From: a virus
Taxonomy: Duplodnaviria; Heunggongvirae; Uroviricota; Caudoviricetes
Strand: one strand, 5' to 3'
DNA length: 16,051 bases
Virus record (IMG/VR): IMGVR_UViG_2563366861_000001
Location: 1 to 16,051 of that record
This document shows positions 1 to 16,051 of this stretch, piece by piece. How positions within the stretch are numbered: the stretch's first letter is position 1; each line of letters starts with the position of its first letter. Below the pieces are notes generated by a model. It saw only the letters and a list, made by a program, of their open reading frames with translations, was not told the origin of the DNA and made no database searches. The translations under genes were made by a program, and so were the position numbers.

Positions 1-187
1 GGGAAAGCTGCACGTAATCAGCAAGCGATATACGCAGCGAATTGAGCGGCATAACCTGAATCTGAGGCAGCACCTGGCACGGCTGGGACGGAAGTCGCTG
101 TCGTTCTCAAAATCGGTGGAGCTGCATGACAAAGTCATCGGGCATTATCTGAACATAAAACACTATCAATAAGTTGGAGTCATTACC
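1..187 (+). mobile_element. IS1: IS1 insertion sequence, 3' portion (window starts inside the element); ends with the IS1 terminal inverted repeat ...CACTATCAATAAGTTGGAGTCATTACC at 161-187
   Basis: Bases 1-187 are the exact reverse complement of 15588-15774; encodes the InsB C-terminus and ends in the canonical IS1 terminal repeat (recognised from memory of IS1). Confidence 0.93.
2..172 (+). CDS. insB: IS1 transposase InsB, C-terminal fragment (5' end outside window)
   Basis: Translation of 2-172 gives [56 protein letters not shown] then TAA at 170-172, the same C-terminus as the 15603-15980 ORF on the minus strand. Confidence 0.9.
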
Positions 188-2266
188 GCCTCTCACGATA
201 TTACCTTTGTTGGTATTGTACAGACCGCTAAAGCGTCCGGTATGGAACGTTTCCCGCTGCCGTATGTGCTGACCAACTGCCATAACTCACTCTGCGCCGT
301 CGGCGGCACTATTAACGGTGATGACCATGTTTTTGGTTTATCGGCGGCCCAGCGTTATGGCGGTATTTTTGTGCCTCCGCATATTGCGGTCATCCATCAA
401 TATATGCGTGAGATGATGGCAGGCGGCGGCAAAATGATCCTCGGGTCAGACAGCCACACCCGTTACGGTGCATTAGGGACAATGGCAGTCGGTGAGGGCG
501 GCGGTGAGTTGGTAAAACAGCTGCTTAATGACACCTGGGATATCGACTATCCGGGCGTGGTTGCGGTGCATCTGACCGGAAAACCTGCGCCGTATGTGGG
601 GCCACAGGATGTGGCGCTGGCTATCATTGGCGCGGTGTTCAAAAACGGTTACGTCAAAAACAAAGTCATGGAGTTCGTTGGACCGGGCGTTAGCGCGCTC
701 TCTACCGATTTCCGTAACAGCGTTGACGTGATGACCACTGAAACGACCTGTTTAAGTTCTGTCTGGCAAACCGATGAAGAAGTCCATAACTGGCTGGCGC
801 TGCACGGTCGCGGCCAGGATTACTGCCAGCTTAACCCTCAACCGATGGCGTACTACGATGGCTGCATCAGCGTTGATTTAAGCGCCATCAAACCAATGAT
901 TGCGCTGCCGTTCCACCCGAGCAACGTGTATGAAATCGACACACTGAACCAGAACCTGACCGACATTCTGCGTGAGATTGAAATTGAGTCCGAACGCGTG
1001 GCGCACGGTAAAGCCAAACTCTCGCTGCTGGATAAAGTGGAAAATGGTCGCCTGAAAGTGCAGCAGGGGATTATCGCGGGCTGTTCTGGCGGTAACTACG
1101 AAAACGTCATCGCGGCGGCGAATGCACTGCGCGGTCAATCCTGTGGCAATGACACCTTCTCGCTGGCAGTTTACCCGTCATCACAGCCGGTGTTTATGGA
1201 TCTCGCCAAAAAAGGTGTGGTAGCAGATTTGATTGGCGCAGGCGCAATCATCAGAACCGCGTTCTGCGGCCCATGCTTTGGCGCGGGCGATACGCCAATC
1301 AACAACGGTTTGAGTATTCGCCACACCACGCGTAACTTCCCGAACCGCGAAGGCTCTAAGCCAGCTAATGGGCAGATGTCAGCGGTGGCGTTGATGGACG
1401 CTCGTTCTATCGCTGCGACTGCGGCAAACGGTGGCTATTTAACCTCTGCCAGCGAACTTGATTGCTGGGACAACGTGCCGGAGTACGCCTTCGATGTAAC
1501 GCCGTATAAAAACCGTGTTTATCAGGGCTTTGTGAAAGGGGCAACTCAGCAACCGCTGATTTACGGGCCGAACATTAAAGACTGGCCGGAATTGGGTGCG
1601 CTGACTGACAATATCGTCCTGAAAGTGTGCTCGAAGATCCTCGACGAAGTGACCACCACCGACGAACTGATTCCTTCCGGTGAAACCTCTTCTTATCGTT
1701 CAAATCCGATTGGTCTGGCGGAGTTTACCCTGTCTCGCCGCGATCCCGGTTATGTTAGCAGAAGTAAAGCGACTGCTGAGCTGGAAAATCAGCGTCTGGC
1801 GGGGAATGTCAGCGAGCTGACAGAGGTGTTTGCGCGCATTAAGCAGATTGCTGGTCAGGAGCATATTGATCCGCTGCAAACTGAAATTGGCAGCATGGTC
1901 TATGCGGTGAAACCAGGCGATGGTTCTGCGCGTGAACAGGCGGCGAGCTGCCAGCGTGTGATTGGCGGTCTGGCGAATATTGCCGAGGAGTACGCGACTA
2001 AACGCTATCGTTCTAACGTCATCAACTGGGGGATGTTACCGCTGCAAATGGCGGAAGTACCAACCTTTGAAGTGGGGGATTACATTTACATCCCTGGCAT
2101 TAAAGCGGCGCTGGATAATCCGGGTACGACGTTTAAAGGTTATGTGATCCATGAAGATGCGCCGGTAACGGAAATTACGCTCTATATGGAAAGTCTGACT
2201 GCTGAAGAGCGCGAGATTATCAAGGCGGGTAGTTTGATTAACTTCAATAAAAACCGTCAGATGTAA
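188..2266 (+). pseudogene. ybhJ: Aconitase-family protein YbhJ, 5'-truncated by the IS1 insertion (frame is open from the IS1 boundary; first ATG at 242)
   Basis: 674-aa ORF 242-2266 with aconitase-family character ([15 protein letters not shown]-like motifs) and recognised as YbhJ; the frame stays open upstream to the TAA at 170-172 inside IS1, so the native N-terminus (about 60 aa by my recollection of a ~753-aa YbhJ) is missing. Confidence 0.8.
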
Positions 2267-2282
2267 AAAGCGCCATGTGAAT

Positions 2283-2390
<108 letters not shown>

Positions 2391-2406
2391 AAATAGTTAA
2401 TTGCTC

Positions 2407-3690
2407 TTACTTCTTCGCCTCTGCAACCACTTTACTACCCACGCCGCGGTTATTGTATTCCCACATGCGGTTGTAGTTAGTGTCATTCAGATTGCGCTGT
2501 ATTTCGTCGTTATCATCTACGCTGCCGGTATTACCCGCAAACGGACGATTAGAGATCACCGCATCGGCCCACGGTTTAGCCGTGTTAAAACCTTCGTTGA
2601 TGGCGCTATCACGGATCACCACCTGACCGTTGGTATTGGCATCAACATCCAGCGAGCGGCCCAGTTGCGCCACACCATCACCGAAAGCATTGAAACGGCT
2701 GTTTACGGCGAGGAAACCGTAGTAAATGTTGGACAGCGTAGCCGGTGCAAACACATACGCTTCTTGCTGAGTACGTGAGTTCACCACGCGGAATTCGGTG
2801 TTATCGAACACCACTGCGCCGCGACCAGAAACGATATCCACATCCCCTTCAATGTAGCTGTTGGTCACCAGCGTACGCGGCTGACGATTTGTTTCCAGAC
2901 GGTTCTGCACACCGCTGTTGGTGACAAAGAAGGTGTTCTGACGACCGAGAATGTTAACGTTGTTAATCTGTACCTGGTCACCATCAGTACGCAGTGCCAC
3001 CGCCGGATGGTTACCTGCATCTACGCTATCGCCCAGCGTGTTTTCGATGGTCAGATTTTGCAGTTGCAGGCCATTGTTTTGTGACCAGAAGACCGCAGAG
3101 CAGAGAACACCGATACTGTCGCTGCGTTTGCTCTGGCAGCTATCGTACATATACCACGCTGGTTTACCTGGCATATATTTGCCGCGCGGGTTGACGTCGT
3201 GACGCCAGTCGGCAGGGCTCATGCCACCATCAAGGGAAAGCCCAATCTTCACATCAATCGGTTTTTCACCTGTACCGTACAGAGTAATTCCACCCGGAGC
3301 GGCAGGGACATATACCGTTCCCTGATACTCACCAGGCATCACGGCAATATACTGGCGCTTGTTGGTACGCTTGATAATTGCCGCATCTACCGCCGCCTGA
3401 ATCGTGGTATGCGTTACACCTTGAGTGCCCGCCGGGCCGACAACAAAGTCAGGTTGCGCAGGCAGGGTAATCGGGGAAGGATTCCACGCTGCAGCACCTG
3501 GTGTCAGGGATGCAAAATAGTGTTGAGCATCGAAATTCTGCGCTTCTTTTGCCGACAGAATCGGGCGAGAAGAGGTACCAGGCGCGGTTTGATCAGAAGG
3601 ACGTTGATCGGGCGGGGTTGAGCTACAGGCGGTCAGCGTCACGCCAAAAGCCAATGCCAGCGCCAGACGGGAAACTGAAAATGTGTTCAC
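2407..3690 (-). CDS. ybhC: YbhC, pectinesterase-family outer-membrane lipoprotein (putative acyl-CoA thioesterase); GTG start
   Basis: 427-aa ORF; N-terminus MNTFSVSRLALALAFGVTLTAC has a signal peptide and lipobox; recognised as E. coli YbhC, the gene immediately gal-proximal to attB-lambda. Confidence 0.9.
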   Translation of the reverse strand: MNTFSVSRLALALAFGVTLTACSSTPPDQRPSDQTAPGTSSRPILSAKEAQNFDAQHYFASLTPGAAAWNPSPITLPAQPDFVVGPAGTQGVTHTTIQAAVDAAIIKRTNKRQYIAVMPGEYQGTVYVPAAPGGITLYGTGEKPIDVKIGLSLDGGMSPADWRHDVNPRGKYMPGKPAWYMYDSCQSKRSDSIGVLCSAVFWSQNNGLQLQNLTIENTLGDSVDAGNHPAVALRTDGDQVQINNVNILGRQNTFFVTNSGVQNRLETNRQPRTLVTNSYIEGDVDIVSGRGAVVFDNTEFRVVNSRTQQEAYVFAPATLSNIYYGFLAVNSRFNAFGDGVAQLGRSLDVDANTNGQVVIRDSAINEGFNTAKPWADAVISNRPFAGNTGSVDDNDEIQRNLNDTNYNRMWEYNNRGVGSKVVAEAKK

Positions 3691-3730
3691 AGGTTGCTCC
3701 GGGCTATGAAATAGAAAAATGAATCCGTTG

Positions 3731-3850
3731 AAGCCTGCTTTTTTATACTAAGTTGGCATTATAAAAAAGCATTGCTTATCAATTTGTTGCAACGAACAGG
3801 TCACTATCAGTCAAAATAAAATCATTATTTGATTTCAATTTTGTCCCACT
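3731..3850. other. attL: attL of a lambda-type prophage: core GCTTTTTTATACTAA at 3737-3751 followed by the phage P' arm (IHF H' site region and Int arm-type sites P'1-P'3, e.g. AGGTCACTAT, CAGTCAAAAT, AAATCATTAT)
   Basis: Exact lambda att core and P' arm sequence (TTATACTAAGTTGGCATTATAAAAAAGCATTGCTTATCAATTTGTTGCAACGAACAGGTCACTATCAGTCAAAATAAAATCATTATTTGATTTCAATTTTGTCCCACTCC); bacterial arm on the ybhC side, phage arm running into int. Confidence 0.93.
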
Positions 3851-4895
3851 CCCTGCCTCTGTCATCACGATACTGTGATGCCATGGTGTCCGACTTATGC
3901 CCGAGAAGATGTTGAGCAAATTTATCGCTTATCTGCTTCTCATAGAGTCTTGCAGACAAACTGCGCAACTCGTGAAAGGTTGGCGGATCCCCTTCGAAGG
4001 AGAGACCTGATGCTTTTCGTGCGCGCATAAAATACCTTGATACTGTGCCGGATGAAAGCGGTTCACGACGAGTAGATGCAATTATGGTTTCTCCGCCAAG
4101 AATCTTTTTGCATTTATCAAGTGTTTCCTTCATTGATATCCCGAGAGCATCAACATGCAATGTTGTTGGGATGGCAATTTTTACGCCTGTTTTGCTTTGC
4201 TCGACATAAAGATATCCATCTACGATATCAGACCACTTCATTTCGCATAAATCACCAACTCGCTGCCCGGTAACAACAGCCAGTTCCATTGCAAGTCTAA
4301 GCCAACATGGTGATGATTCTGCTGCTTGATAAATTTTCAGGTATTCGTCAGCCGTAAGTCTTGATCTCCTTACCTCTGATTTTGCAGCGCGAGTGGCTGC
4401 GACCGGGTTTGTTGTTATATGGCCTTCAGCCATAGCCTCTCGGAATGCATCGCTCAGTGTTGATCTGATTAACTTGGCTGATGCCGCCTTTCCCTCGTCT
4501 ATGTATCCATTGAGCATTGCCGCAATTTCTTTTGTGGTGATGTCTTCAAGTGGAGCATCAGGCAGACCCCTCCTTATTGCTTTAATTTTGCTCATGTAAT
4601 TTATGAGTGTCTTCTGCTTGATTCCTCTGCTGGCCAGGATTTTTTCGTAGCGATCAAGCCATGAATGTAACGTAACGGAATTATCACTGTTGATTCTCGC
4701 TGTCAGAGGCTTGTGTTTGTGTCCTGAAAATAACTCAATGTTGGCCTGTATAGCTTCAGTGATTGCGATTCGCCTGTCTCGGCCTAATCCAAACTCTTTA
4801 CCCGTCCTTGGGTCCCTGTAGCAGTAATATCCATTGTTTCTTATATAAAGGTTAGGGGGTAAATCCCGGCGCTCATGACTTCGCCTTCTTCCCAT
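3825..4895 (-). CDS. int: Lambda-type integrase (tyrosine recombinase Int), apparently full length
   Basis: 356-aa ORF, near-identical to remembered phage lambda Int (MGRRRSHERRDLPPNLYIRNNGYYCYRDPRTGKEFGLGRDRR...REWDKIEIK); 3' end overlaps the P' arm as in lambda. Confidence 0.97.
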   Translation of the reverse strand: MGRRRSHERRDLPPNLYIRNNGYYCYRDPRTGKEFGLGRDRRIAITEAIQANIELFSGHKHKPLTARINSDNSVTLHSWLDRYEKILASRGIKQKTLINYMSKIKAIRRGLPDAPLEDITTKEIAAMLNGYIDEGKAASAKLIRSTLSDAFREAMAEGHITTNPVAATRAAKSEVRRSRLTADEYLKIYQAAESSPCWLRLAMELAVVTGQRVGDLCEMKWSDIVDGYLYVEQSKTGVKIAIPTTLHVDALGISMKETLDKCKKILGGETIIASTRREPLSSGTVSRYFMRARKASGLSFEGDPPTFHELRSLSARLYEKQISDKFAQHLLGHKSDTMASQYRDDRGREWDKIEIK

Positions 4896-5091
4896 TTCTG
4901 ATCCTCTTCAAAAGGCTACCTGTTACTGGTCGATTTAAGTCAACCTTTACCGCTGATTCGTGGAACAGATATTCTCTTCCATCCTTAACCGGAGGAGGGA
5001 ATATCCTGCATTCGCGCACCCATCGACGAACTGTTTCAAGGCTTCTTGGGCGTCGCTGGCGAGCGTTCCACTCCTGAAGTGTCAAGTACAT
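4873..5091 (-). CDS. xis: Lambda-type excisionase Xis; overlaps the int start as in lambda
   Basis: 72-aa ORF MYLTLQEWNARQRRPRSLETVRRWVRECRIFPPPVKDGREYLFHESAVKVDLNRPVTGSLLKRIRNGKKAKS matching remembered lambda Xis. Confidence 0.95.
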   Translation of the reverse strand: MYLTLQEWNARQRRPRSLETVRRWVRECRIFPPPVKDGREYLFHESAVKVDLNRPVTGSLLKRIRNGKKAKS

Positions 5092-5116
5092 CGCAAAGTC
5101 TCCGCAATTACACGCA

Positions 5117-5140
5117 AGAAAAAACCGCCATCAGGCGGCT
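5117..5140 (-). terminator. Candidate intrinsic terminator just after the orf55-like gene (5-bp GC stem plus G-U, 4-nt loop containing the stop codon, then a 6-U tract)
   Basis: Minus strand reads GCCGCC-TGAT-GGCGGT followed by TTTTTT (plus-strand A-run 5119-5124). Confidence 0.35.
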
Positions 5141-5298
5141 TGGTGTTCTTTCAGTTCTTCAATTCGAATATTGGTTATGTCTGCATGTGCTATCTGCGCC
5201 CATATCATCCAGTGGTCATAGCAGTCATTGATGTTCTCTGCTTCGATAACTCTGTTGAATGGTTCTCCATTCCATTCACCTGTGACTCGGAAGTGCAT
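5131..5298 (-). CDS. Small 55-aa protein upstream of xis (lambda orf55-like); below the ORF-track size cutoff
   Basis: Hand translation of the minus strand: MHFRVTGEWNGEPFNRVIEAENINDCYDHWMIWAQIAHADITNIRIEELKEHQAA, stop TGA; position matches the small ORF next to xis in lambda (identity from memory, unverified). Confidence 0.5.
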   Translation of the reverse strand: MHFRVTGEWNGEPFNRVIEAENINDCYDHWMIWAQIAHADITNIRIEELKEHQAA

Positions 5299-5307
5299 TT
5301 ATCATCT

Positions 5308-5336
5308 CCATAAAACAAAACTCGCCGTAGCGAGTT
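5308..5336 (-). terminator. Candidate intrinsic terminator downstream of the 142-aa moron gene
   Basis: Stem AACTCGC / GCGAGTT (5319-5325 / 5330-5336) with loop CGTA; on the minus strand it is followed by the U-rich run TTTTGTTTTA. Confidence 0.45.
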
Positions 5337-5380
5337 CAGATATAATTTCCACCAAAGGCAGTAGTTGCTGATGCTAAGAA

Positions 5381-5809
5381 TTATTCAATATCTATTCCTG
5401 TAATATCTTTTATCTTTTTCCTTGCAAAGCCTTTTGCTAGTGATTTTGAAACACTTATTAGTGTACTAATTCCCTCATCCTTAAAGTTTGTTTTTATAGT
5501 TTGCCAGACCTCCTTTTGACGCAAGTCAGCAATAAAATCATGCCCTCTTGCTGTCAACCTCAGTGGTACTTCGATCCAACTATATCCAACACCTTCCCCT
5601 AACTCGTTGGACATTATATGACCGAACCCAGGTTTTCCATCAACCCTGACTATTAATTCGTAGTCGCATAATAATCGCATATGGAAAATAAAATTTTGGT
5701 CATATCTATTAAAGCCATTATCCTCTAGTTCACTAAGCATCGTGTCAGGGCCATGAGTTTTTTCGAATGCGATAAGTAGATCTTTTAGATATTGCTGGTC
5801 TAATTTCAT
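5381..5809 (-). CDS. Hypothetical 142-aa protein (moron gene in the int-xis-proximal accessory hotspot); function unknown
   Basis: ATG-initiated ORF with a GGAGG Shine-Dalgarno 6 nt upstream, its own downstream terminator, and AT-rich composition distinct from the flanking lambda-type genes; no family recognised. Confidence 0.65.
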   Translation of the reverse strand: MKLDQQYLKDLLIAFEKTHGPDTMLSELEDNGFNRYDQNFIFHMRLLCDYELIVRVDGKPGFGHIMSNELGEGVGYSWIEVPLRLTARGHDFIADLRQKEVWQTIKTNFKDEGISTLISVSKSLAKGFARKKIKDITGIDIE

Positions 5810-6056
5810 TGCCGCCTCCGTGACATGTCACAGAGATTTATATCATTAATTTTGTTTCGTGCCAGCCTTTGGTCACCCAGCATTGTGAGTCACCATTACA
5901 CGGGCATGAATTAACAGGAACTCTCTCGCCGCACTTACCGCAACGTTTTCTGCTGATCGATTTTATACGCCAGCGCACACGTGCATCATCCTGGCGGCTC
6001 AGTAACGCGATGTACTCACCAAACTCGTAAGGCGCATGCCTGAAGCGGCGCGTGGC

Positions 6057-6176
6057 TCAGTTACGATCCAGCATTTCAATTTCCTGAGCATCAAGTACAA
6101 GCTCCAGCTTACGCATACCGGATGATGCTTGCTTGGCTCTCTGATCGACTTTGCGCTCTGCTGATGATTTAGCCAT
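6057..6176 (-). CDS. Hypothetical 39-aa protein (MAKSSAERKVDQRAKQASSGMRKLELVLDAQEIEMLDRN); same frame continues after a single TGA into a 72-codon zinc-ribbon-like segment (5838-6056)
   Basis: ATG at 6174-6176 preceded by an AGGA Shine-Dalgarno; stop TGA at 6057-6059; the downstream frame (…RKRCGKCGERVPVNSCPCNGDSQCW…) stays open to TAA at 5838-5840 with no ATG of its own. Confidence 0.35.
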   Translation of the reverse strand: MAKSSAERKVDQRAKQASSGMRKLELVLDAQEIEMLDRN

Positions 6177-6370
6177 TCTGCTTTTCCTGCATTAGGAGAA
6201 AGACAATCATGGCGGCGCGGATACTTCCGGTATCTTTTTACTCGATATTACCCTTCAATGGCACATACAAGAAGAGAGCCATCAACAGGAGTGAGTGAGG
6301 AATCGACAACCAGCAACGCTTAATTATCTATAGTGTCGTATTTGCTTCATAAAATATGGCGAATAACACA

Positions 6371-6404
6371 AAGCCCGCAGCAGCTCATTGTGCGGGCTTT
6401 TCTT
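6371..6404. terminator. Candidate bidirectional intrinsic terminator between convergent transcription units (9-bp stem AAGCCCGCA / TGCGGGCTT, T-run on the plus side)
   Basis: Perfect inverted repeat at 6371-6379 / 6391-6399 followed by TTTCTT; lies about 70 nt past the stop of the 204-aa minus-strand gene. Confidence 0.5.
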
Positions 6405-6469
6405 ATACATACTTCCTAGAGATAATTCTATGGAGGCATTAAATTAATACTGTCATTGGTAATATCATA

Positions 6470-7084
6470 TTATCTAAAAGTCTTTCCACTTTTAACGTCT
6501 AGGTATATTCTGTTCGACAACGTCATTCCTCCGCAATATGTGAAATAGATGTTTTTCCCCTTATTGCTTGATGCCATCCACCCTCCGATTTCCTTAAAGT
6601 CGCTTTCCGTGCAGACCCCTTCGTTTATTAACTTCCTAGCTGCCGAAGAAAACTCTTTTTTGTATATACGGTAGTCATCAGATCCTTTGATTAAAGTATC
6701 ATCTCCGCTCGCATTTTCAGCAGGATCTGATGGCCTTTCACTGCTAAGATCACTAAGTTTAACCCATTCTGAAAACTTGCCATTGACGATTCCGTTTTTT
6801 CTTGTGCAGGATTTATTACCTTCTTTAATATATTCGCTTTCCCCTCCCACACATGAGGCTGAATATGGCTCAGTTATACGAACCCATTCACCTTTTTTTT
6901 CTAGAAAATCTACGCCTTCCCTGAAAAATAGTTTCCCAGCCACTCCACATTTACTTGAAGGGCAGGTATGTCTTTCCGTTCGATCAACAACAACCCAAAG
7001 TCTTGATTCATTTTTTGCCATTGCCGATGGTATTTGAGATGAGACAATTAACGTAAGCCCTAAAATTAGTATTGATTTTTTCAT
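6470..7084 (-). CDS. Hypothetical secreted, cysteine-rich 204-aa protein (moron); function unknown
   Basis: ATG start with an AAGGA Shine-Dalgarno; N-terminus MKKSILILGLTLIVSSQIPSAMA is a typical Sec signal peptide; 7 Cys in the mature part; low GC; terminator downstream. Confidence 0.65.
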   Translation of the reverse strand: MKKSILILGLTLIVSSQIPSAMAKNESRLWVVVDRTERHTCPSSKCGVAGKLFFREGVDFLEKKGEWVRITEPYSASCVGGESEYIKEGNKSCTRKNGIVNGKFSEWVKLSDLSSERPSDPAENASGDDTLIKGSDDYRIYKKEFSSAARKLINEGVCTESDFKEIGGWMASSNKGKNIYFTYCGGMTLSNRIYLDVKSGKTFR

Positions 7085-7530
7085 TGTAATTTCCTTTTAC
7101 TTTTTACAAAGCGTTTAATCATGGCTGATTATCTTTAAGCGTAGTAACAGCCTTGTGCGAAACATGTTACCAAATCGCCATTTCAGTGTATCCGCAGTTA
7201 GGCTGCCACTTCAAGGATTCCTAATTACATGGTACGTAAGCGTAAAATCCCGTTGGTTGTCGGGTAATAACTCTGATCAAATCTCCCTTGTCTTTTGCTC
7301 TTACGTATGCAGCTCTTGTGTATTCAACCCAGGCCTCCAGTTCAGCAATACGCTTACTTCCATCCGAGATAACACCTTCTACTCACGCTGCTCGTTGAGT
7401 TTTGATTTTTGCTGTCTCCAGCTCAACACGCAGTTTCCTCACCGTTAGCGCAATATCCTCGTTCTCCTGGTCGCGGCGTTTGATGTACTGCTGGTTTCTT
7501 TCCCGTTCATCCAGCAGTGTCAGCACAATC

Positions 7531-7563
7531 GATGGTACGCTGCAGGATAATGTCCGGTGTCAT
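7531..7563 (-). pseudogene. exo: Remnant of lambda exo (first 10 codons MTPDIILQRT only), then unrelated sequence
   Basis: ATG overlaps the bet stop (ATGA) exactly as in lambda; reading diverges from remembered lambda Exo after codon 10 and hits a stop 8 codons later. Confidence 0.6.
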
Positions 7564-8009
7564 GCTGCCACCTTCTGCTCAGTGGCTTTCTGTTTCAGGA
7601 ATCCAAGAGCTTTCACTGCTTCGGCCTGTGTCAGTTCTGACGATGCGCGAATGTCGCGGCGAAATATCTGGGAACAGAGCGGCAATAAGTCGTCATCCCA
7701 TGTTTTGTCCAGGGCAATCAGCAGAGTGTTAATCTCCTGCATGGTTTCATCGTTAACCGGAGTAATGTCGCGTTCCGGCTGACGTTCTGCGGTGTATGCG
7801 GTATTTTCGACAATGCGCTCGGCTTCATCCTTGTCATAGATACCAGCAAATCCGAAGGCCAGACGGGCACACTGAATCATGGCTTTATGCCGTAACATCC
7901 GTTTGGGATGCGACTGCCACGGCCCCGTAATTTCTCTGCCTTCGCGGGTTTTGAATGGTTCGCGGCGGCATTCATCCATCCACTCGGTAACGCAGATCGG
8001 ATGATTACC
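7560..8009 (-). pseudogene. bet: Remnant of lambda bet (Red-beta): C-terminal ~150 codons only, 5' portion deleted
   Basis: Translation NHPICVTEWMDECRREPFKTREGREITGPWQSHPKRMLRHKAMIQCARLAFGFAGIYDKDEAERIVENTAYTAERQPERDITPVNDETMQEINTLLIALDKTWDDDLLPLCSQIFRRDIRASSELTQAEAVKALGFLKQKATEQKVAA matches the remembered C-terminus of lambda Bet; homology stops near 8009. Confidence 0.88.
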
Positions 8010-8165
8010 GGTTCGCTACCAGGGAAGAACGGGAAGGAAAGGTGAGCACGAATCTGATTTTCAAGGAGTGTCGCCAGAGTGCCGCGATGAAGCGGGTGTT
8101 GGCATTTTATCGCGGCAATTTTCAATAGACTATGTACATAAAAATATCATTTTTTTAATACATGT

Positions 8166-8357
8166 CTAATTATTGGACGAAATTGGTTTTTGCTTTGGTT
8201 TAGTTAGCCTAGCAATCAAGCCAGAGGCAATAATGATGATCCAAGCAATTTGATGCAATGCTACTCCAATATAAGAACCTTTATAGATAATAAAGGCATA
8301 GATCGCTAGAAACGAAATAAATATCCATAACGAAAGTTGATAAATTTTGGCGCGCAT
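8166..8357 (-). CDS. Possible small membrane protein (63 aa from ATG at 8357; two predicted transmembrane helices)
   Basis: Hydrophobic ORF MRAKIYQLSLWIFISFLAIYAFIIYKGSYIGVALHQIAWIIIIASGLIARLTKPKQ...; weak ribosome-binding site; the ORF-track start at 8372 is a TTG. Confidence 0.3.
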   Translation of the reverse strand: MRAKIYQLSLWIFISFLAIYAFIIYKGSYIGVALHQIAWIIIIASGLIARLTKPKQKPISSNN

Positions 8358-8613
8358 ATTTAATCCAATCAATCAGAAAGACGAGTAATCATAGAGGTAC
8401 TATCACCCGGGTAACTATTGCTATTATGAACGGATAGGATAGAGGCTTCAATAACATATGCATCAAGTATGATGGAATATGTAGGTGAAAATGACTTGTG
8501 TCAAATTTGTGGAAATGAGTACCATGTTTCTCTGAAATTGATGTCGTTAATGGCTAGTGATAGTGAACTTTTTTACTTTATAATTCCTTTGGTTATAACA
8601 ATAAGGTAAATTT

Positions 8614-9174
8614 ATGAAGAAGATAATATTATTAGCCATGATTATTGGTTCTTTAACAGGTTGCGCTAGTGTGCCACCATTGAATTTTTCAACACCTAAC
8701 GTGGGAGTTAGCCAGAAAAAAATAGATGCTGAAATTAAGTCATTAACGGTATCACTTGCTCGTCCAGATGAGCAGAAAGGGGATATCACTGCTGGTATGG
8801 AGGCTATAACTCCAATTTGGCGTGAATCTTTGCAGGAAGCACTCGACCGAATGACTATTTTTCGTGATAGTTCACCAAATACGGTTAGCTTAAATGTTAA
8901 AGTGTTGGCTCTTGACGTTCCTGCTTTTGGTGTTTCAATGACAACTAAAGCAATTGCAAGGTATGAAATAATCAACCGTGCGAATGGTGATATTATATAT
9001 ACGCAGGATATTGAGTCTACCGGTACTGTTCCAGCCAGTTACGCATTCTACGGTATTGTTCGAGCACGCGAATCTGTTAATCGCGCGGTGCAAAACAACA
9101 TAACGCAGTTCTTGCAAGCATTAGAAAGTGTTGATCTTTCTCGTCCAATGTTTCCTGTTAGGGTAGCTAAATGA
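8614..9174 (+). CDS. Putative lipoprotein, 186 aa (signal peptide plus lipobox LTGC); possibly YajG-like, function unknown
   Basis: MKKIILLAMIIGSLTGCAS… lipoprotein signal; ATG with upstream AAGG; stop overlaps the next gene's start (ATGA); low GC. Confidence 0.7.
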   Translation: MKKIILLAMIIGSLTGCASVPPLNFSTPNVGVSQKKIDAEIKSLTVSLARPDEQKGDITAGMEAITPIWRESLQEALDRMTIFRDSSPNTVSLNVKVLALDVPAFGVSMTTKAIARYEIINRANGDIIYTQDIESTGTVPASYAFYGIVRARESVNRAVQNNITQFLQALESVDLSRPMFPVRVAK

Positions 9175-9623
9175 AGCGATTATTCGTAATTGCTCCACTC
9201 TTAGTGTTGGTTGGATGCGCACAAAATATATCGCCAAATAGTTATTCTGTTGGCTCTGTGGGCATGGTTAATCGAACTATCGCTGGTACAGTTATTAGTG
9301 CTAGGGGGGTTGATATCAGTGGGACTTCCGCGTTAGGCGGGACTGCTGGGGCTGCCGTGGGGGCAACCGCTGGTTCTGCGCTTGGTGGGGGAGTTCGTTC
9401 TAATATCGTTGGTGCCGTTGGTGGTGCAGTCATTGGTGGTATTGCCGGGGCAGCAATCGAATCTTCAGCAACAAAACAAACAGGCATGGAATATGTTGTC
9501 GAAACTGAGAATGGGAATTTAATGACCATTGTTCAAGGCAAAGATCCGTTATTTACTCAAGGAAGTAAGGTCCTTGTTTTATACGGAAACCCTTCTCGCA
9601 TAATAACAGACCCGCGTCACTAA
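9171..9623 (+). CDS. SlyB-like outer-membrane lipoprotein with a glycine-zipper domain, 150 aa
   Basis: Lipobox LLVLVGCA, then the Gly-rich segment GTSALGGTAGAAVGATAGSALGGGVRSNIVGAVGGAVIGGIAGAAIE and a C-terminal region resembling SlyB/Pcp (family assignment from memory). Confidence 0.7.
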   Translation: MKRLFVIAPLLVLVGCAQNISPNSYSVGSVGMVNRTIAGTVISARGVDISGTSALGGTAGAAVGATAGSALGGGVRSNIVGAVGGAVIGGIAGAAIESSATKQTGMEYVVETENGNLMTIVQGKDPLFTQGSKVLVLYGNPSRIITDPRH

Positions 9624-9663
9624 CATACCTTTTGATTTTGTAAAATCAATTCGTAATAATAAA

Positions 9664-9700
9664 GTCATCGGAGCTTGAACAACTCCGGTGACTTCTGCGC
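9664..9700 (+). terminator. Candidate terminator after the lipoprotein operon (10-bp stem GTCATCGGAG / CTCCGGTGAC with one G-U, 9-nt loop, weak T-rich tail)
   Basis: Inverted repeat at 9664-9673 / 9683-9692 followed by TTCTGCGC. Confidence 0.3.
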
Positions 9701-9813
9701 TAAACGGGGACGTTTATGCGCACATACAATCCAAACTCTCTTCTCCCTTCACAGATGCAGAAATGCACCTGCGATTTTTTGCATCCAGCGTCTGACCTCT
9801 GCGGAGGTGAAGC

Positions 9814-10269
9814 GTGAACCTACCACAAGATGGCATCAAACTGCATCGCGGTAACTTCACCGCTATCGGCCAGCAGATCCAGCCTTATCTGGAGGACGGA
9901 AAATGCTTTCGCATGGTGCTTAAACCGTGGCGTGAGAAACGCAGTCTTTCCCAGAATGCACTCAGCCACATGTGGTACAGCGAAATCAGTGAATACCTCA
10001 TCAGCAGGGGGAAATCGTTCGCTACCGCAGCATGGGTAAAAGATGCTCTCAAACACACATACCTCGGTTATGAAACCAAGGACCTGGTTGATGTCGTAAC
10101 CGGCGAAATCACTACTATCCAGTCGTTACGCCATACCTCCGATCTTGATACCGGAGAGATGTATATCTTCCTGTGTAAGGTTGAAGCCTGGGCGGTGAAT
10201 ATTGGCTGCCACCTGACTATTCCGCAGAGCTGCGAGTTCCAGCAGCTCCGCGACAAACAGGAGGCGTAA
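9814..10269 (+). CDS. ybcN: Nin-region protein YbcN-like, 151 aa, GTG start
   Basis: [58 protein letters not shown]… recognised as the DLP12-type YbcN preceding ninE; GGAGG Shine-Dalgarno upstream. Confidence 0.8.
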
Positions 10270-10439
10270 TGGCTACACCGCTTATTCGTGTCATGAACGG
10301 ACACATCTACAGAGTACCAAATCGTCGTAAGCGTAAACCGGAGCTGAAGCCTTCCGAAATACCAACACTGCTCGGATATACCGCCAGCCTGGTTGATAAA
10401 AAATGGTTGCGACTGGCAGCAAGGAGGAGTCATGGCTGA
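10269..10439 (+). CDS. ninE: NinE, 56 aa
   Basis: Hand translation [56 protein letters not shown]; start overlaps the ybcN stop (TAATG); conserved lambdoid nin-region order. Confidence 0.8.
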   Translation: MATPLIRVMNGHIYRVPNRRKRKPELKPSEIPTLLGYTASLVDKKWLRLAARRSHG

Positions 10440-10722
10440 TTTGAGAAAAGCAGCGCGTGGTCGGGAATGCCAGGTAAGAATCCCTGGCGTATGTAATGGC
10501 AACCCTGAAACGTCTGTACTGGCACATATCCGGCTGACTGGATTGTGCGGCACCGGTACGAAACCGCCAGACCTGATTGCCACCATTGCATGTTCTGCCT
10601 GCCACGACGAAATCGACCGCCGCACACATTTTGTCGATGCTGCATATGCAAAAGAATGCGCGCTGGAAGGTATGGCGAGAACACAGGTTATCTGGCTGAA
10701 AGAGGGGGTTATTAAGGCGTGA
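10432..10722 (+). CDS. ybcO: YbcO-like (DUF1364) putative nuclease, 96 aa from the ATG at 10432
   Basis: [64 protein letters not shown]…; AGGAGG Shine-Dalgarno just upstream; overlaps the ninE stop. Confidence 0.85.
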
Positions 10723-11081
10723 ATACCTACAGCATCACATTACCCTGGCCTCCGAGCAATAATCGCTATTACCGCCATAATCGCGGGCGCACACACATCA
10801 GCGCAGAAGGGCAGGCATACCGCGATAACGTCACCCGAATCATTAAAAACGCAATGCTGGATATCGGCCTGGCTATGCCAGTGAAAATCCGTATTGAGTG
10901 CCACATGCCGGATCGCCGTCGCCGTGACCTGGATAATCTGCAAAAAGCCGCTTTTGACGCACTCACCAAAGCAGGTTTCTGGCTGGATGATGCTCAGGTC
11001 GTTGATTACCGCGTTGTGAAGATGCCTGTTACCAAAGGTGGGAGGCTGGAACTGACCATCACCGAAATGGGGAATGAATGA
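10719..11081 (+). CDS. rusA: RusA Holliday-junction resolvase, 120 aa
   Basis: [37 protein letters not shown]…[12 protein letters not shown] matches remembered E. coli RusA almost residue for residue. Confidence 0.93.
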
Positions 11082-11218
11082 TGTTTGAGTTTAATATGGC
11101 AGAACTTCTTCGCCACCGCTGGATGCGCCTGCGCTTATATCGTTTCCCCAGTTCTGTTTTGACCGATTACCGAATACTGAGGAATTACGCCAAAACCCTG
11201 ACAGGAGCAGGAGTATGA
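11078..11218 (+). CDS. ylcG: Small 46-aa protein YlcG-like, between rusA and Q
   Basis: Hand translation [46 protein letters not shown]; overlaps the rusA stop; position matches ylcG of DLP12 (sequence identity from memory, unverified). Confidence 0.55.
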
Positions 11219-11303
11219 AGTCAGAGATAACAATCAACTAATACTGTTTTATTGATTTTTGCTTGTAATTGGCGTTCTGGTCTGATTTTTGTGGAGTAAG
11301 TTG

Positions 11304-11687
11304 ATGCGTGATATTCAGATGGTTCTTGAGCGTTGGGGAGCGTGGGCGGCTAATAATCATGAAGATGTGACCTGGTCGTCCATTGCCGCCGGTTTTAAGG
11401 GATTAATTACTTCAAAAGTAAAATCTCGCCCGCAATGTTGTGACGATGACGCGATGATCATTTGCGGGTGCATGGCCCGTCTGAAAAAGAACAACAGCGA
11501 TTTGCACGATTTATTAGTAGATTATTATGTAGTCGGTATGACATTCATGTCACTGGCAGGTAAGCATTGCTGCTCTGATGGTTATATCGGGAAAAGGTTA
11601 CAGAAGGCTGAGGGTATAATTGAAGGGATGTTAATGGCATTAGATATCCGGTTAGAGATGGATATCGTTGTTAATAACTCTAATTAA
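11304..11687 (+). CDS. Late-gene antiterminator Q (phage 82/DLP12 QuuD-type), 127 aa from the ATG at 11304
   Basis: [60 protein letters not shown]… with Cys-rich zinc-binding motifs; sits after the nin genes and before the lysis cassette. Confidence 0.85.
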
Positions 11688-11702
11688 TATGCCAATTGTT
11701 TA

Positions 11703-11738
11703 CTAAAAATTATTAAAAATGGGGCGTTGAGACGCCCC
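11703..11738 (-). terminator. Candidate intrinsic terminator for the porin gene (stem GGGGCG / CGCCCC, then ATTTTTAATAATTTTT on the minus strand)
   Basis: Inverted repeat 11721-11726 / 11733-11738 with a U-rich run on the minus-strand 3' side. Confidence 0.4.
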
Positions 11739-11826
11739 CAAAAATAAAGGGTAATATATAACAGAAGGTTTATATAGTTAGAAGCAAGGTTGTGCTCCTA
11801 AAGGAAGTGGCTTGAGGGAGCCACTT

Positions 11827-11866
11827 ATATGTTGGGGAGGCAAAGCCTCCCGCAACATATCTTTTA
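11827..11866 (+). terminator. Candidate hairpin terminator downstream of Q (stem ATATGTTGGGGAGGC / GCCTCCCGCAACATAT followed by CTTTT)
   Basis: Long imperfect inverted repeat 11827-11860 followed by a short T-run; lies between convergent Q and the porin gene. Confidence 0.35.
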
Positions 11867-11875
11867 GTAATCAAA

Positions 11876-12958
11876 TTAGAACTGGTAAACCATACCTACA
11901 GCAACGATATCATCGGTAGCAACGCCAGATGCTTTCGTGAAATCGCTCTTATCAATCAGGTTGATTTTGTAATCAACAAAAGTGGACATATTTTTGTTGA
12001 AGTAATAGGTTGCACCTACATCAATATATTCAACCAGGTCCTGATCACCCCACGCACCCAAGTCTTTTCCTTTAGATTGCAGGTAAGCAACGGACGGACG
12101 CAGACCGAAGTCGAACTGATATTGTGCAACTACTTCGAAGTTTTGTGCTTTGTTGGCAATATGGTTATTACCAAAAACAGTCATGTTCTGGGTTTCAGAA
12201 TAGGTGGTAGCCAGATAGATGTTGTTCGCATCATATTTCAGACCAGCTGCCCATACTTCAGCATTTTGACCAGATGCATTCAGGCTGTTGTTACCGTAGA
12301 TAACCTGATTATTAGTGCGGTCAGATTTAGCATAGGTTGCACCTACACCGAATCCTTCATACTCATAAGTAGTGGAGAAACCGAAACCATCACCATTAGC
12401 TTCAGTTACGTCAGTGCGGTCATTTTTACCCTGATACTGAGCAGCAAAGTTCAGACCATCAACCAGACCAAAGAAGTCATTGTTACGATAAGTTGCAACA
12501 CCTGTGGTGCGACCAGTCATGAATACATCTGTTTGGGTCCAGGTATCGCCACCGAATTCTGGCAGAACGTCGGTCCATGCACCAATATCGTATGCTACAC
12601 CGTAGTTACGGCCATAATCGATGGAGCCGTAGTCACCGAATTTCAGGCCAGCGAAGGCAAGACGGGTTTTATCTTTGGAGGAACCTTGAGATTCAGCGCG
12701 GTTGCCTTTGAATTCATATTCCCACTGACCGAAACCAGTCAGTTGATCGTTGATTTGGGTTTCACCTTTGAAGCCAAGACGGGCATAAGTAGTATCACCA
12801 TCATCTGCATCATTAGAGGAGAAGTAGTGCTTAGCATTAACTTTCCCGTACAGATCCAGCTTGTTACTGTCTTTATTATAAATTTCAGCTGCCTGAGCAG
12901 ACATCGCCATCAGTACTGATGCAGCTACAGCAGAAATTGCCACTGTTAATTTTTTCAT
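11876..12958 (-). CDS. nmpC: Phage-borne OmpC-family general porin (NmpC/Lc type), 360-aa precursor, apparently full length; start taken at [11 protein letters not shown]…
   Basis: Signal peptide [23 protein letters not shown], mature N-terminus [17 protein letters not shown]…, C-terminal …VAVGMVYQF with terminal Phe typical of porins; located between Q and the holin as in DLP12 and PA-2. Confidence 0.9.
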
Positions 12959-13384
12959 CGTGAGCCCTTTTTTTGAACTATTATTAAAAAATGATGTCAC
13001 TGCGCGATAAATATTCATCTAATCAATGTGATTATTTCAAGATGTAAGTTTTGGTTTCTCATTTGATTTGTGAAGTAGATCTCTATTTTTATCTGAACTT
13101 TTTCTATCGAATCCTATTCATGGCTCTTGGCTGAATAAAAATAAATCTATTAGCCAATTTATATTAATGGCTGTTATTTATAAGTGCTCTATAATTTGAA
13201 GATTCAATTTAAACCAGCTAAAAATAACGCTGGAAATTATTTGTTGGTTATTTGTTGAGATTTGCTTATGTATTTGTAGTGGTGTTTTCAATACTCGGTA
13301 GCATTCTCGCAAATATCATTTAGTGGTTTACGTACGTAAAAAATTGGTTATGCTGTTAAGAGTGGTTACTTCGTCACACAGCTT

Positions 13385-13416
13385 AAACCCGCCGTCGAGC
13401 GGGTTTTTCCATTTTT
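13385..13416 (+). terminator. Intrinsic terminator upstream of the lysis cassette, candidate tR' (8-bp stem AAACCCGC / GCGGGTTT, loop CGTCGA, then TTTTCCATTTTTT)
   Basis: Perfect inverted repeat 13385-13392 / 13399-13406 followed by a T-rich tract on the plus strand, about 130 nt before the holin start. Confidence 0.55.
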
Positions 13417-13545
13417 TGAGTCTCGATATTAGCTGATAACCCAATACCTGAGTTATTCACTGACTCCGAGTCTGTTAAGTTTCTGCTTTTTTGCGATACG
13501 TTGTATTCCCTCAATTTACACCCGCTTTGTCTGCGAGGTGGGGTT

Positions 13546-13761
13546 ATGAAATCCATGGATAAGTTAACAACGGGTGTCGCCTATGGCACCTCAGCAGGTA
13601 GTGCCGGTTACTGGTTTTTACAGCTGCTCGATAAAGTCACGCCCTCACAGTGGGCAGCAATAGGTGTGCTGGGTAGCCTGGTATTTGGCCTGCTGACGTA
13701 CCTGACAAACCTTTATTTCAAGATTAAAGAAGATAAGCGCAAGGCTGCGAGAGGTGAATAA
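13546..13761 (+). CDS. S: Class II holin/pinholin of the phage 21 S family, 71 aa, with dual-start motif MKSM (antiholin/holin)
   Basis: [71 protein letters not shown], close to remembered S21; Shine-Dalgarno GAGGTGGGG; stop overlaps the endolysin start (TAATG). Confidence 0.9.
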
Positions 13762-14258
13762 TGCCTCCATCATTACGAAAAGCCGTTGCTGCTGCTATTG
13801 GTGGCGGAGCAATTGCTATAGCATCAGTGTTAATTACTGGCCCAAGTGGTAACGATGGTCTGGAAGGTGTCAGCTACGTACCATACAAAGATATCGTTGG
13901 CGTATGGACTGTATGTCACGGACACACCGGAAAAGACATCATGCTCGGTAAAACGTATACCAAAGCAGAATGCAAAGCACTCTTGAATAAAGACCTTGCC
14001 ACTGTCGCCAGACAAATTAACCCGTACATCAAAGTCGATATACCGGAAACAACGCGCGGCGCTCTTTACTCATTCGTTTACAACGTGGGTGCTGGCAATT
14101 TCAGAACATCGACGCTTCTTCGCAAAATAAACCAGGGCGATATCAAAGGCGCATGTGATCAGCTACGTCGCTGGACATATGCTGGCGGTAAGCAATGGAA
14201 AGGTCTCATGACTCGTCGTGAGATTGAGCGTGAAATCTGTTTGTGGGGTCAGCAATGA
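13761..14258 (+). CDS. R: SAR endolysin (phage 21 R-type lysozyme), 165 aa
   Basis: N-terminal Gly/Ala-rich signal-arrest-release helix ([20 protein letters not shown]) followed by the T4-lysozyme-like catalytic region [23 protein letters not shown]. Confidence 0.92.
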
Positions 14259-14716
14259 ACAGAGTAACCGCGATTATCTCCGCTCTGGTTATCTGCATCA
14301 TCGTCTACCTGTCATGGGCTGTTAATCATTACCGTGATAACGCCATTACCTACAAAGCCCAGCGCGACAAAAATGCCAGAGAACTGAAGCTGGCGAACGC
14401 GGCAATTACTGACATGCAGATGCGTCAGCGTGATGTTGCTGCGCTCGATGCAAAATACACGAAGGAGTTAGCTGATGCGAAAGCTGAAAATGATGCTCTG
14501 CGTGATGATGTTGCCGCTGGTCGTCGTCGGTTGCACATCAAAGCAGTCTGTCAGTCAGTGCGTGAAGCCACCACCGCCTCCGGCGTGGATAATGCAGCCT
14601 CCCCCCGACTGGCAGACACCGCTGAACGGGATTATTTCACCCTCAGAGAGAGGCTGATCACTATGCAAAAACAACTGGAAGGAACCCAGAAGTATATTAA
14701 TGAGCAGTGCAGATAG
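14255..14716 (+). CDS. Rz: Rz inner-membrane spanin subunit, 153 aa from the ATG at 14255
   Basis: [68 protein letters not shown]…; N-terminal TM helix then coiled coil; overlaps the R stop (ATGA). Confidence 0.9.
14475..14657 (+). CDS. Rz1: Rz1 outer-membrane lipoprotein spanin subunit, embedded in the +1 frame of Rz
   Basis: [24 protein letters not shown]… lipobox plus proline-rich tract ([15 protein letters not shown]); classic Rz/Rz1 embedded-gene architecture. Confidence 0.85.
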
Positions 14717-14747
14717 AGTTGCCCATATCGATGGGCAACTCATGCAA

Positions 14748-15041
14748 TTATTGTGAGCAATACACACGCGCTTCCAGCGGAGTATAAATGCCTAAAGTAA
14801 TAAAACCGAGCAATCCATTTACGAATGTTTGCTGGGTTTCTGTTTTAACAACATTTTCTGCGCCGCCACAAATTTTGGCTGCATCGACAGTTTTCTTCTG
14901 CCCAATTCCAGAAACGAAGAAATGATGGGTGATGGTTTCCTTTGGTGCTACTGCTGCCGGTTTGTTTTGAACAGTAAACGTCTGTTGAGCACATCCTGTA
15001 ATAAGCAGGGCCAGCGCAGTAGCGAGTAGCATTTTTTTCAT
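14748..15041 (-). CDS. bor: Bor lipoprotein (serum-resistance lysogenic-conversion factor), 97 aa
   Basis: MKKMLLATALALLITGCAQQTFTVQNKPAAVAPKETITHHFFVSGIGQKKTVDAAKICGGAENVVKTETQQTFVNGLLGFITLGIYTPLEARVYCSQ; recognised as lambda Bor / DLP12 BorD. Confidence 0.9.
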   Translation of the reverse strand: MKKMLLATALALLITGCAQQTFTVQNKPAAVAPKETITHHFFVSGIGQKKTVDAAKICGGAENVVKTETQQTFVNGLLGFITLGIYTPLEARVYCSQ

Positions 15042-15331
15042 GGTGTTATTCCCGATGCTTTTTGAAGTTCGCAGAATCGTATGTGTAGAAAATTAAACAA
15101 ACCCTAAACAATGAGTTGAAATTTCATATTGTTAATATTTATTAATGTATGTCAGGTGCGATGAATCGTCATTGTATTCCCGGATTAACTATGTCCACAG
15201 CCCTGACGGGGAACTTCTCTGCGGGAGTGTCCGGGAATAATTAAAAACGATGCACACAGGGTTTAGCGCGTACACGTATTGCATTATGCCAACGCCCCGG
15301 TGCTGACACGGAAGAAACCGGACGTTATGAT

Positions 15332-15587
15332 TTAGCGTGGAAAGATTTGTGTAGTGTTCTGAATGCTCTCAGTAAATAGTAATGAATTATCAAAGGTATA
15401 GTAATATCTTTTATGTTCATGGATATTTGTAACCCATCGGAAAACTCCTGCTTTAGCAAGATTTTCCCTGTATTGCTGAAATGTGATTTCTCTTGATTTC
15501 AACCTATCATAGGACGTTTCTATAAGATGCGTGTTTCTTGAGAATTTAACATTTACAACCTTTTTAAGTCCTTTTATTAACACGGTG
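15332..15587 (-). pseudogene. ybcV: YbcV-like (DUF1398) gene, 5'-truncated by the right-hand IS1
   Basis: The reading frame …[83 protein letters not shown] runs open into the IS1 terminal repeat; the ORF-track start at 15601 is a TTG inside IS1. Family name recalled from the DLP12 gene order, with moderate certainty. Confidence 0.55.
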
Positions 15588-16051
15588 GGTAATGACTCCA
15601 ACTTATTGATAGTGTTTTATGTTCAGATAATGCCCGATGACTTTGTCATGCAGCTCCACCGATTTTGAGAACGACAGCGACTTCCGTCCCAGCCGTGCCA
15701 GGTGCTGCCTCAGATTCAGGTTATGCCGCTCAATTCGCTGCGTATATCGCTTGCTGATTACGTGCAGCTTTCCCTTCAGGCGGGATTCATACAGCGGCCA
15801 GCCATCCGTCATCCATATCACCACGTCAAAGGGTGACAGCAGGCTCATAAGACGCCCCAGCGTCGCCATAGTGCGTTCACCGAATACGTGCGCAACAACC
15901 GTCTTCCGGAGCCTGTCATACGCGTAAAACAGCCAGCGCTGGCGCGATTTAGCCCCGACGTATCCCCACTGTTCGTCCATTTCCGCGCAGACGATGACGT
16001 CACTGCCCGGCTGTATGCGCGAGGTTACCGACTGCGGCCTGAGTTTTTTAA
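15588..16051 (-). mobile_element. IS1: IS1 insertion sequence, partial (runs off the window end), inverted relative to the IS1 at 1-187
   Basis: Begins with the IS1 terminal repeat GGTAATGACTCCAACTTATTGATAGTG at 15588; 15588-15774 is the exact reverse complement of 1-187. Confidence 0.95.
15603..16049 (-). CDS. insB: IS1 transposase InsB reading frame (5' end outside window)
   Basis: …[68 protein letters not shown]…HYLNIKHYQ, recognised as IS1 InsB. Confidence 0.92.

Follow-up and report, generated by a model that had tools for sequence, protein, structure and literature searches.

The question that this locus raises is what two overlapping lipoprotein genes in a low-GC island of a lambdoid prophage encode, and what they do for the phage or for the bacterium that carries it. 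The locus lies in a stretch of 16,051 nucleotides from a virus of the class Caudoviricetes (positions 1 to 16,051 of IMG/VR record IMGVR_UViG_2563366861_000001), and this whole stretch is referred to here as the window. The two genes, which we call lipoA and lipoB, are as follows.

8614-9174, + strand: lipoA, encoding a 186-aa lipoprotein with the lipobox LTGC (Cys17) and an alpha/beta fold of the LptE/PqiC/PelC type; no Pfam family; PHROG 12521
9171-9623, + strand: lipoB, encoding a 150-aa glycine-zipper lipoprotein of the SlyB family with the lipobox LVGC (Cys16); its start overlaps the stop of lipoA (ATGA)

It is well supported that LipoB represents a distinct and widespread subfamily of SlyB, that this subfamily is genetically locked to a partner with the LptE/PqiC fold, namely LipoA, and that the pair is mobile via temperate phages. 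This is what is new here, and the identity and the genomic behaviour of the pair are likewise well supported. Literature searches found no publication on, or characterisation of, the lipoA-lipoB pair, which agrees with a preliminary description of the window, made from the sequence, in which the arrangement was said not to be a characterised one.

A SlyB homologue and its partner lipoprotein

Homologues of both proteins number in the hundreds, with best E values of 1e-112 for LipoA and 5e-84 for LipoB. Among the Enterobacterales copies the number of nonsynonymous substitutions per nonsynonymous site (dN) was 0.11-0.29 and synonymous sites were saturated, so that for the ratio of dN to the synonymous rate (dN/dS) the analysis yields no more than a ceiling, which is well under 1. 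The homologues and this purifying selection show that lipoA and lipoB are real genes and not chance open reading frames (ORFs), and the two ATGA-overlapping lipobox genes of the preliminary description are thereby confirmed at the positions given above. Both proteins begin with a basic-hydrophobic signal peptide that ends in a lipobox, LTG followed by C17 in LipoA and LVG followed by C16 in LipoB, and the lipobox cysteine was invariant in 43 LipoA homologues and 40 LipoB homologues. In Enterobacterales it is the residue at position +2 that governs the sorting of lipoproteins, and since this residue is Ala and not Asp in both LipoA and LipoB, both are predicted to sort to the outer membrane.

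SlyB, also known as PCP, is a PhoPQ-regulated outer-membrane lipoprotein of Enterobacterales. When LipoB was compared by phmmer with the SlyB chain of the SlyB13-BamA structure (7ojf_A), residues 2-149 aligned onto SlyB residues 3-155 with an E value of 1.3e-14, and SlyB was also the sole significant Foldseek match of LipoB in the PDB (E 2.5e-8, TM 0.55-0.58, 27% identity). The AlphaFold model of LipoB has a strand at 37-49, then a helical hairpin (55-71/75-101) and, at the C-terminus, a beta domain with strands within 103-146, and thus LipoB shares with SlyB (PDB 7ojf/7ojg) the lipobox, the N-terminal strand, the glycine-zipper hairpin and the C-terminal beta domain. The Pfam glycine-zipper models scored under their cutoffs, PF05433 giving 21.1 bits against a cutoff of 24.2. 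The phmmer and Foldseek matches show that LipoB is a divergent full-length SlyB homologue, and they bear out the SlyB-like label that the second protein had been given. LipoB differs from SlyB in that it is only about 27% identical to it and belongs to a separate subfamily that is 55-75% conserved within itself, and in that its gene is always paired with lipoA, is not linked to slyA and sits in a prophage cargo slot. Under membrane stress, SlyB has been reported to oligomerise into rings around lipid and outer-membrane proteins, and the phenotypes reported concern polymyxin and sodium dodecyl sulfate-EDTA (bioRxiv 10.64898/2025.12.22.696046; bioRxiv 10.64898/2026.06.08.730324). A precedent for functional diversification in this class is YfgH, a glycine-zipper outer-membrane lipoprotein of E. 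coli that has been proposed to stabilise the outer membrane by forming SlyB-like rings with a distinct lipid specificity. YfgH, however, is encoded by a core chromosomal gene, belongs to another subfamily and has no partner lipoprotein described in the work on it, and the work on SlyB paralogues of Yersinia likewise deals with close paralogues without a partner gene.

The model of LipoA is confident (predicted local distance difference test score, pLDDT, 85.7; predicted template modelling score, pTM, 0.79) and shows a beta-alpha-beta3-alpha fold. As modelled, this is the fold type of LptE, PqiC, PelC, CsgG and TraT, which are barrel-partnering or ring-forming outer-membrane lipoproteins; a search of a viral fold library returned only low-TM noise. 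By sequence, however, LipoA belongs to none of the families of LptE, PqiC (DUF330, PF03886), PelC or the CsgG N-domain: PF03886 matched none of the 43 LipoA family members, no match to any Pfam or NCBIfam family was obtained, and the one group to which LipoA could be assigned is PHROG 12521, which is of unknown function. When the genes neighbouring LipoA were clustered, no lptD, pqiAB/MCE, pel or csg genes were found among them, and lipoB was the only conserved neighbour. LipoA is set apart from the LptE/PqiC class also by elements of its own. Its conserved elements are an N-terminal arm, PPLNFSVPNVG, an Arg/Asn-rich face of the last helix, RARESxNRxxQNN, and a C-terminal PMFP motif, the arm being conserved where a variable tether would be normal.

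Two names have been attached to LipoA in databases. In some recent records the Prokaryotic Genome Annotation Pipeline (PGAP) names it "YajG family", and the preliminary description also thought the first protein possibly YajG-like. This label is rejected on the model scores and survives only as a remote match. LipoA fails both curated models, since PRK11627 scored 11.4 bits against a cutoff of 242 and matched only in the signal-peptide region, and none of the 43 members matched PF03923 at E<=1. On the other hand, a LipoA profile aligned with E. coli YajG by hhalign at a probability of 77% over 120 columns, partly in the signal peptide, and YajG is a lipoprotein of similar size that probably has the same fold class. 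The yajG gene is a core gene that adjoins ampG, and no SlyB-like gene is paired with it. An older name for LipoA, "UDP-N-acetylglucosamine acyltransferase", is that of LpxA, a cytoplasmic enzyme with a hexapeptide-repeat left-handed beta-helix, and we reject it: LipoA has no hexapeptide or LpxA match in Pfam and is a lipoprotein with an alpha/beta fold.

Conservation of the pair and its genomic contexts

Relatives of LipoA were found at 69 loci, taking one genome per species, in Gamma-, Beta- and Alphaproteobacteria and in a few assemblies labelled Verrucomicrobiota or Desulfobulbaceae. In 64 of these 69 species genomes the very next gene, in the same orientation, encodes a LipoB relative, often with stop and start overlapping, and in IMG/VR lipoB directly follows lipoA in 34 of 39 viral contigs, so that the co-occurrence in other phages that the preliminary description had asked after is indeed found. 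Five loci without LipoB and one copy without the zipper look like decay, and modules that are decaying show frameshifts and loss of the zipper. No third conserved gene emerged from all-against-all clustering of the neighbouring ORFs. Both proteins keep 55-70% identity across Gamma-, Beta- and Alphaproteobacteria, with a mean column identity of 62-65%, and a library-wide search with the LipoA profile gave about 970 cluster representatives at E<=1e-3.

None of the family members is a natural fusion of LipoA with SlyB; the longer members (338-644 aa) have unrelated extensions or mis-called starts and contain no SlyB domain. Two metagenomic proteins of 539-644 aa (P0299 and P0320) combine LipoA-family domains, with no obvious lipobox, with long C-terminal extensions that are coiled-coil or repeat-rich, which suggests that the LipoA fold is used also in larger secreted or anchored proteins. 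A different arrangement was seen in two Photorhabdus loci (L048 and L051, 6001-8100), where lipoA is followed by a repeat array that resembles repetitive extragenic palindromic (REP) elements and translates as HCRTGSLE; after this array the place of lipoB is taken by the gene of an unrelated lipoprotein of 186 aa.

The statements that follow on phage and non-phage contexts are drawn from sampled loci and from a scan for adjacency to cI. The preliminary description had held that its reading would fall if both genes were ordinary chromosomal genes in the same arrangement in prophage-free genomes, and this is what was found in part. The pair lies between a TonB-dependent receptor gene and ispH-lspA-ileS in the chromosome of Stenotrophomonas, near umuDC in that of K. 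oxytoca, beside a lipid A acyltransferase gene in that of Edaphovirga, and in a non-phage chromosomal neighbourhood in Luteimonas, and it is also carried by phages. The existence of non-phage chromosomal copies implies that the pair is a general bacterial envelope module that phages have borrowed and not an invention of phages.

The pair has been captured repeatedly by temperate phages, and at least four distinct phage contexts were seen. The first is the slot between ren and ninB in lambdoid phages of E. coli, which includes the deposited complete genome of phage PhiR30_1, the one record with the pair among 50,697 records of phage isolates. In a Pantoea-type siphophage the pair lies between the tape-measure gene and gpM (L081-L083, 6441-7453) with TGATAGGAT upstream, and in a Salmonella prophage it is surrounded by toxin-antitoxin cassettes and precedes the Q region. 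In the remaining context, seen at five high-GC loci (L111, 7259-9025; L113; L114; L115; L024), it follows, after 46-53 bp and in the same direction, a cI-type repressor gene whose product has HTH_3 and Peptidase_S24 domains, in an operon-like arrangement; these five loci are four IMG/VR viral contigs (GC 0.63-0.66) and one contig of a Stenotrophomonas metagenome-assembled genome. Lambda keeps rexAB directly after cI. The co-directional placement of the pair in other prophages, in the position that rexAB has in lambda, suggests that the pair may be expressed in lysogens. Plasmids gave a different picture, as the module was absent from the 72,556 that were searched, the sole match being a partial one of 26% identity in a Vibrio plasmid.

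The island in the lambdoid prophage

Many E. coli chromosomes match the 1.65 kb of the window around the pair with 100% identity. The counterpart in strain JNQH498 is a lambdoid prophage of the DLP12 type, inserted next to ybhC, in which integrase, excisionase and b-region genes are followed by a Bet/RecT fragment, a ren fragment and the two lipoprotein genes, and these by ybcN(ninB)-ninE-ybcO-rusA-ylcG-quuD, a porin pseudogene of the nmpC/ompD type, lysis genes and bor. The other features of this part of the window are as follows.

7560-7979, - strand: C-terminal fragment of Bet/RecT, left of the ren fragment
8006-8128, + strand: ren fragment, the left flank of the island, abutting the Bet/RecT fragment
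8129-9629, about 1.5 kb, boundaries approximate: low-GC cargo island between the ren fragment and the ninB leader
8166-8372, - strand: divergent orphan ORF of 68 codons from TTG, or 63 aa from the ATG at 8357, with two hydrophobic stretches
8557-8584, + strand: sigma-70 promoter-like site GTGATA-16-TATAAT, 30 nt before the lipoA start, from a consensus scan only
8603-8606, + strand: ribosome-binding site AAGG upstream of lipoA
9663-9693, + strand: hairpin with an 11-bp stem (-25 kcal/mol, z -4) downstream of lipoB, without a T-tract
9814-10269, + strand: ninB/ybcN, the right flank and the start of the nin region

The island is low-GC DNA of foreign origin, inserted in the prophage at a slot whose cargo varies. 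The GC profile runs at 0.34-0.41 across 8000-9200 and at about 0.50-0.53 in the flanks, which confirms the AT-rich island of the preliminary description, and its placing of the island between a Red relic and the nin region also holds, the order being the Bet/RecT fragment, the ren fragment, the island and orf33/ninB (ybcN), the last from 9716/9814. On the left the island begins where the ren fragment ends, and its right edge is at about 9630, where similarity to lambdoids of the phage 82/HK639 type resumes; the match to other lambdoids is confined to the backbone on the right side of the island. No direct or inverted repeats were found to flank it, and a scan against Rfam gave no match at E<=1. 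In the sibling phage PhiR34_1 the slot between ren and ninB is filled by ybcK-ybcL-ybcM, and in DLP12 of K-12 it also holds emrE; different cargoes alternate at this slot, which is a hot spot for them. The island thus lies between conserved backbone genes, is absent from sibling phages and deviates in base composition, as is expected of a moron.

The prophage of the window lacks everything between bet and ren; with this interval, from gam to P, the genes for immunity and replication are gone. The Bet fragment abutting the ren fragment marks this deletion, and the prophage is therefore cryptic. The deletion junction occurs in only 18 of 5426 complete E. coli genomes, whereas the lipoprotein island occurs in 279 of them, at least 99% identical and always chromosomal, never on a plasmid, which means that the island also occurs beyond any single decayed prophage. 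Both reading frames of the pair are intact in 272-279 E. coli genomes.

Promoter-like sites are no more numerous in the region than in shuffled sequences, and similar extended -10-like elements, TGATAGGAT, precede lipoA in Edaphovirga and in the Pantoea-type phage. The hairpin downstream of lipoB had been taken for a candidate terminator, and this is not borne out. It has no T-tract, and its sequence is common to phage 82, HK639 and other lambdoids without the island; it therefore belongs to the phage backbone, as part of the nin leader, and is not a terminator of the operon's own. The annotation of phage 82 (X92588) gives it as a possible regulator-binding site that adjoins a putative promoter upstream of orf33/ninB, and the inverted repeat at 9663-9693 could also be a tR2-like element. 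The divergent ORF, proposed as a possible small membrane protein, fared no better. Of the versions of the island, that of E. coli alone has this ORF, a search for homologues gave near-identical E. coli copies only and no family match, and it is a hypothetical gene in the annotation of PhiR30_1 and was not called by PGAP; its coding status is thus unsupported, and it stands outside the conserved module. Further left in the window, in a second low-GC patch (GC 0.38-0.41), a gene at 6470-7084 on the - strand encodes a 204-aa secreted protein with a Sec-type signal peptide, MKKSILILGLTLIVSSQIPSAMA, that matches PHROG 8310 (unknown function) and, weakly, SH3_3. It is likely to represent another orphan moron, located in the b-region.

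What the pair may do

The mechanism and the phenotype of the pair we infer as follows. With a probability of roughly one half, LipoA and LipoB form a lysogen-expressed module that remodels or stabilises the outer membrane by means of a SlyB-type ring. On this view the island would be a phage moron, and its cargo a self-contained outer-membrane module of two genes. LipoA and LipoB would be lipidated and, judging from their +2 residues, sorted to the outer membrane, where the glycine-zipper hairpin of LipoB is expected, by homology to SlyB, to insert and where LipoB would oligomerise to a ring of the SlyB type that corrals lipid, beta-barrel proteins or both. That the two genes are so strictly syntenic, and that motifs on the surface and in the arm of LipoA are conserved, suggests that LipoA may be the dedicated partner of LipoB on the inner side of the outer membrane. 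It could dock on or under the ring via the PPLNFSVPNVG arm, the RARESxNRxxQNN helix and the PMFP motif, and it might either specify what the ring contains or bind anionic lipid head groups. In a lysogen the pair would alter the organisation or the robustness of the outer membrane, and the probable outcome would be lysogenic conversion towards tolerance of envelope stress, with changed receptor availability as a possible side effect. In favour of this reading speak the full-length homology of LipoB to SlyB, the fold of LipoA, the constancy of the pair, the purifying selection, the envelope genes that neighbour the chromosomal copies in Stenotrophomonas and Edaphovirga, and the several contexts in phages.

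Several points weigh against this proposal. The model of LipoB is only moderately confident (pLDDT 72, pTM 0.46). Residues I65, V69 and F73 of SlyB have been reported to be necessary for phospholipid binding (bioRxiv 10.64898/2026.06.08.730324), and they align with T58, A62 and T66 of LipoB, though the register is uncertain in this Gly-rich helix; with these residues at the lipid-binding positions the interior of a LipoB ring may behave differently from that of SlyB. The contact between LipoA and LipoB is postulated from their synteny, no natural fusion of the two having been found, and the candidate promoter in the window is a match to the consensus. Finally, E. coli already has a slyB of its own, which puts the benefit of an extra copy in question.

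The main rival, which we regard as unlikely, is superinfection or surface exclusion, in which a lysogen-expressed pair would block incoming phages or conjugation in the manner of Cor, Llp or TraT, either because receptor proteins are sequestered or immobilised in LipoB rings or because the passage of DNA is obstructed at the inner face of the outer membrane. The positions of the pair in phages agree with this, and Bor, Lom, Cor and Llp are likewise small envelope proteins that temperate or T5-like phages encode at moron positions, bor being present in the window's own prophage. These, however, are single genes without a two-gene counterpart in chromosomes, and they have no sequence or family relation to the pair. 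LipoA and LipoB show no sequence relation to the Cor, Llp, Bor and Sie families, PADLOC gave no match, and PHROGs 12521 and 13877 are both of unknown function. Exclusion also sits poorly with the many copies that lie in ordinary chromosomal contexts with no phage nearby and with the absence of the module from the plasmids searched, and proteins of the SlyB type have been described as stress-response scaffolds and not as receptor blockers.

A more elaborate form of exclusion can be drawn from TraT, the surface-exclusion and serum-resistance lipoprotein of the F plasmid. It has been described that TraT consists of an LptE-like core and a two-helix membrane hairpin and forms a decameric ring, and that it was once a chromosomal gene that mobile elements co-opted. 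LipoA and LipoB would supply the same two elements as separate proteins, by analogy only. One can thus imagine a two-component cage in the outer membrane, a "split TraT", in which a SlyB-type ring is capped or lined by LipoA with its LptE fold, and which is expressed from or beside the immunity operon and sequesters receptors against phages or conjugation. We consider this cage a decidedly speculative proposal.

It is improbable that the pair acts in the lytic cycle, being read through from pR together with the nin region and serving phage growth; its task could be, for instance, to keep the outer membrane intact up to the point of lysis by spanins, or to keep progeny off debris with a timing like that of T5 Llp. 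The orientation of the genes would allow it, as they point the same way as the delayed-early rightward operon in the phages of E. coli, where they lie between ren and ninB, and the same way as the late tail operon in the Pantoea-type phage, but their co-directional placement beside cI in prophages of the Xanthomonadales type points to expression in lysogens, copies exist in phage-free chromosomal settings, and the window's prophage has kept the module intact although its immunity and replication region is gone. Neutral hitch-hiking, by which the island would be a decaying remnant in a cryptic prophage and functionless in E. coli, has equally little to recommend it: the prophage of the window is indeed defective, its Bet fragment being fused to the ren fragment, and the near identity of the 279 E. 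coli copies means that selection within E. coli is not measurable, but the frames are intact, the same island is found in the complete phage genome PhiR30_1 and in prophages without the bet/ren deletion (279 against 18), purifying selection is strong among the Enterobacterales copies, and decay is visible where it does happen.

As to what the module means for the biology of these bacteria and their phages, the present assignment corrects a propagated misannotation of LipoA as "UDP-N-acetylglucosamine acyltransferase" or "YajG family". Should the pair turn out to be no more than a redundant stabiliser of the membrane it would be of modest interest, and if the split-TraT cage were true it would represent a new class of phage-borne exclusion system made from a host stress-response scaffold. 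A candidate function in lysogenic conversion or exclusion is carried by about 5% of complete E. coli genomes. Scaffolds of the SlyB type that partition the stressed outer membrane have only recently been described, and with a view to the regulation and the specificity of their rings the pair offers a two-gene system of about 1 kb for asking whether SlyB-like rings can have obligate partners.

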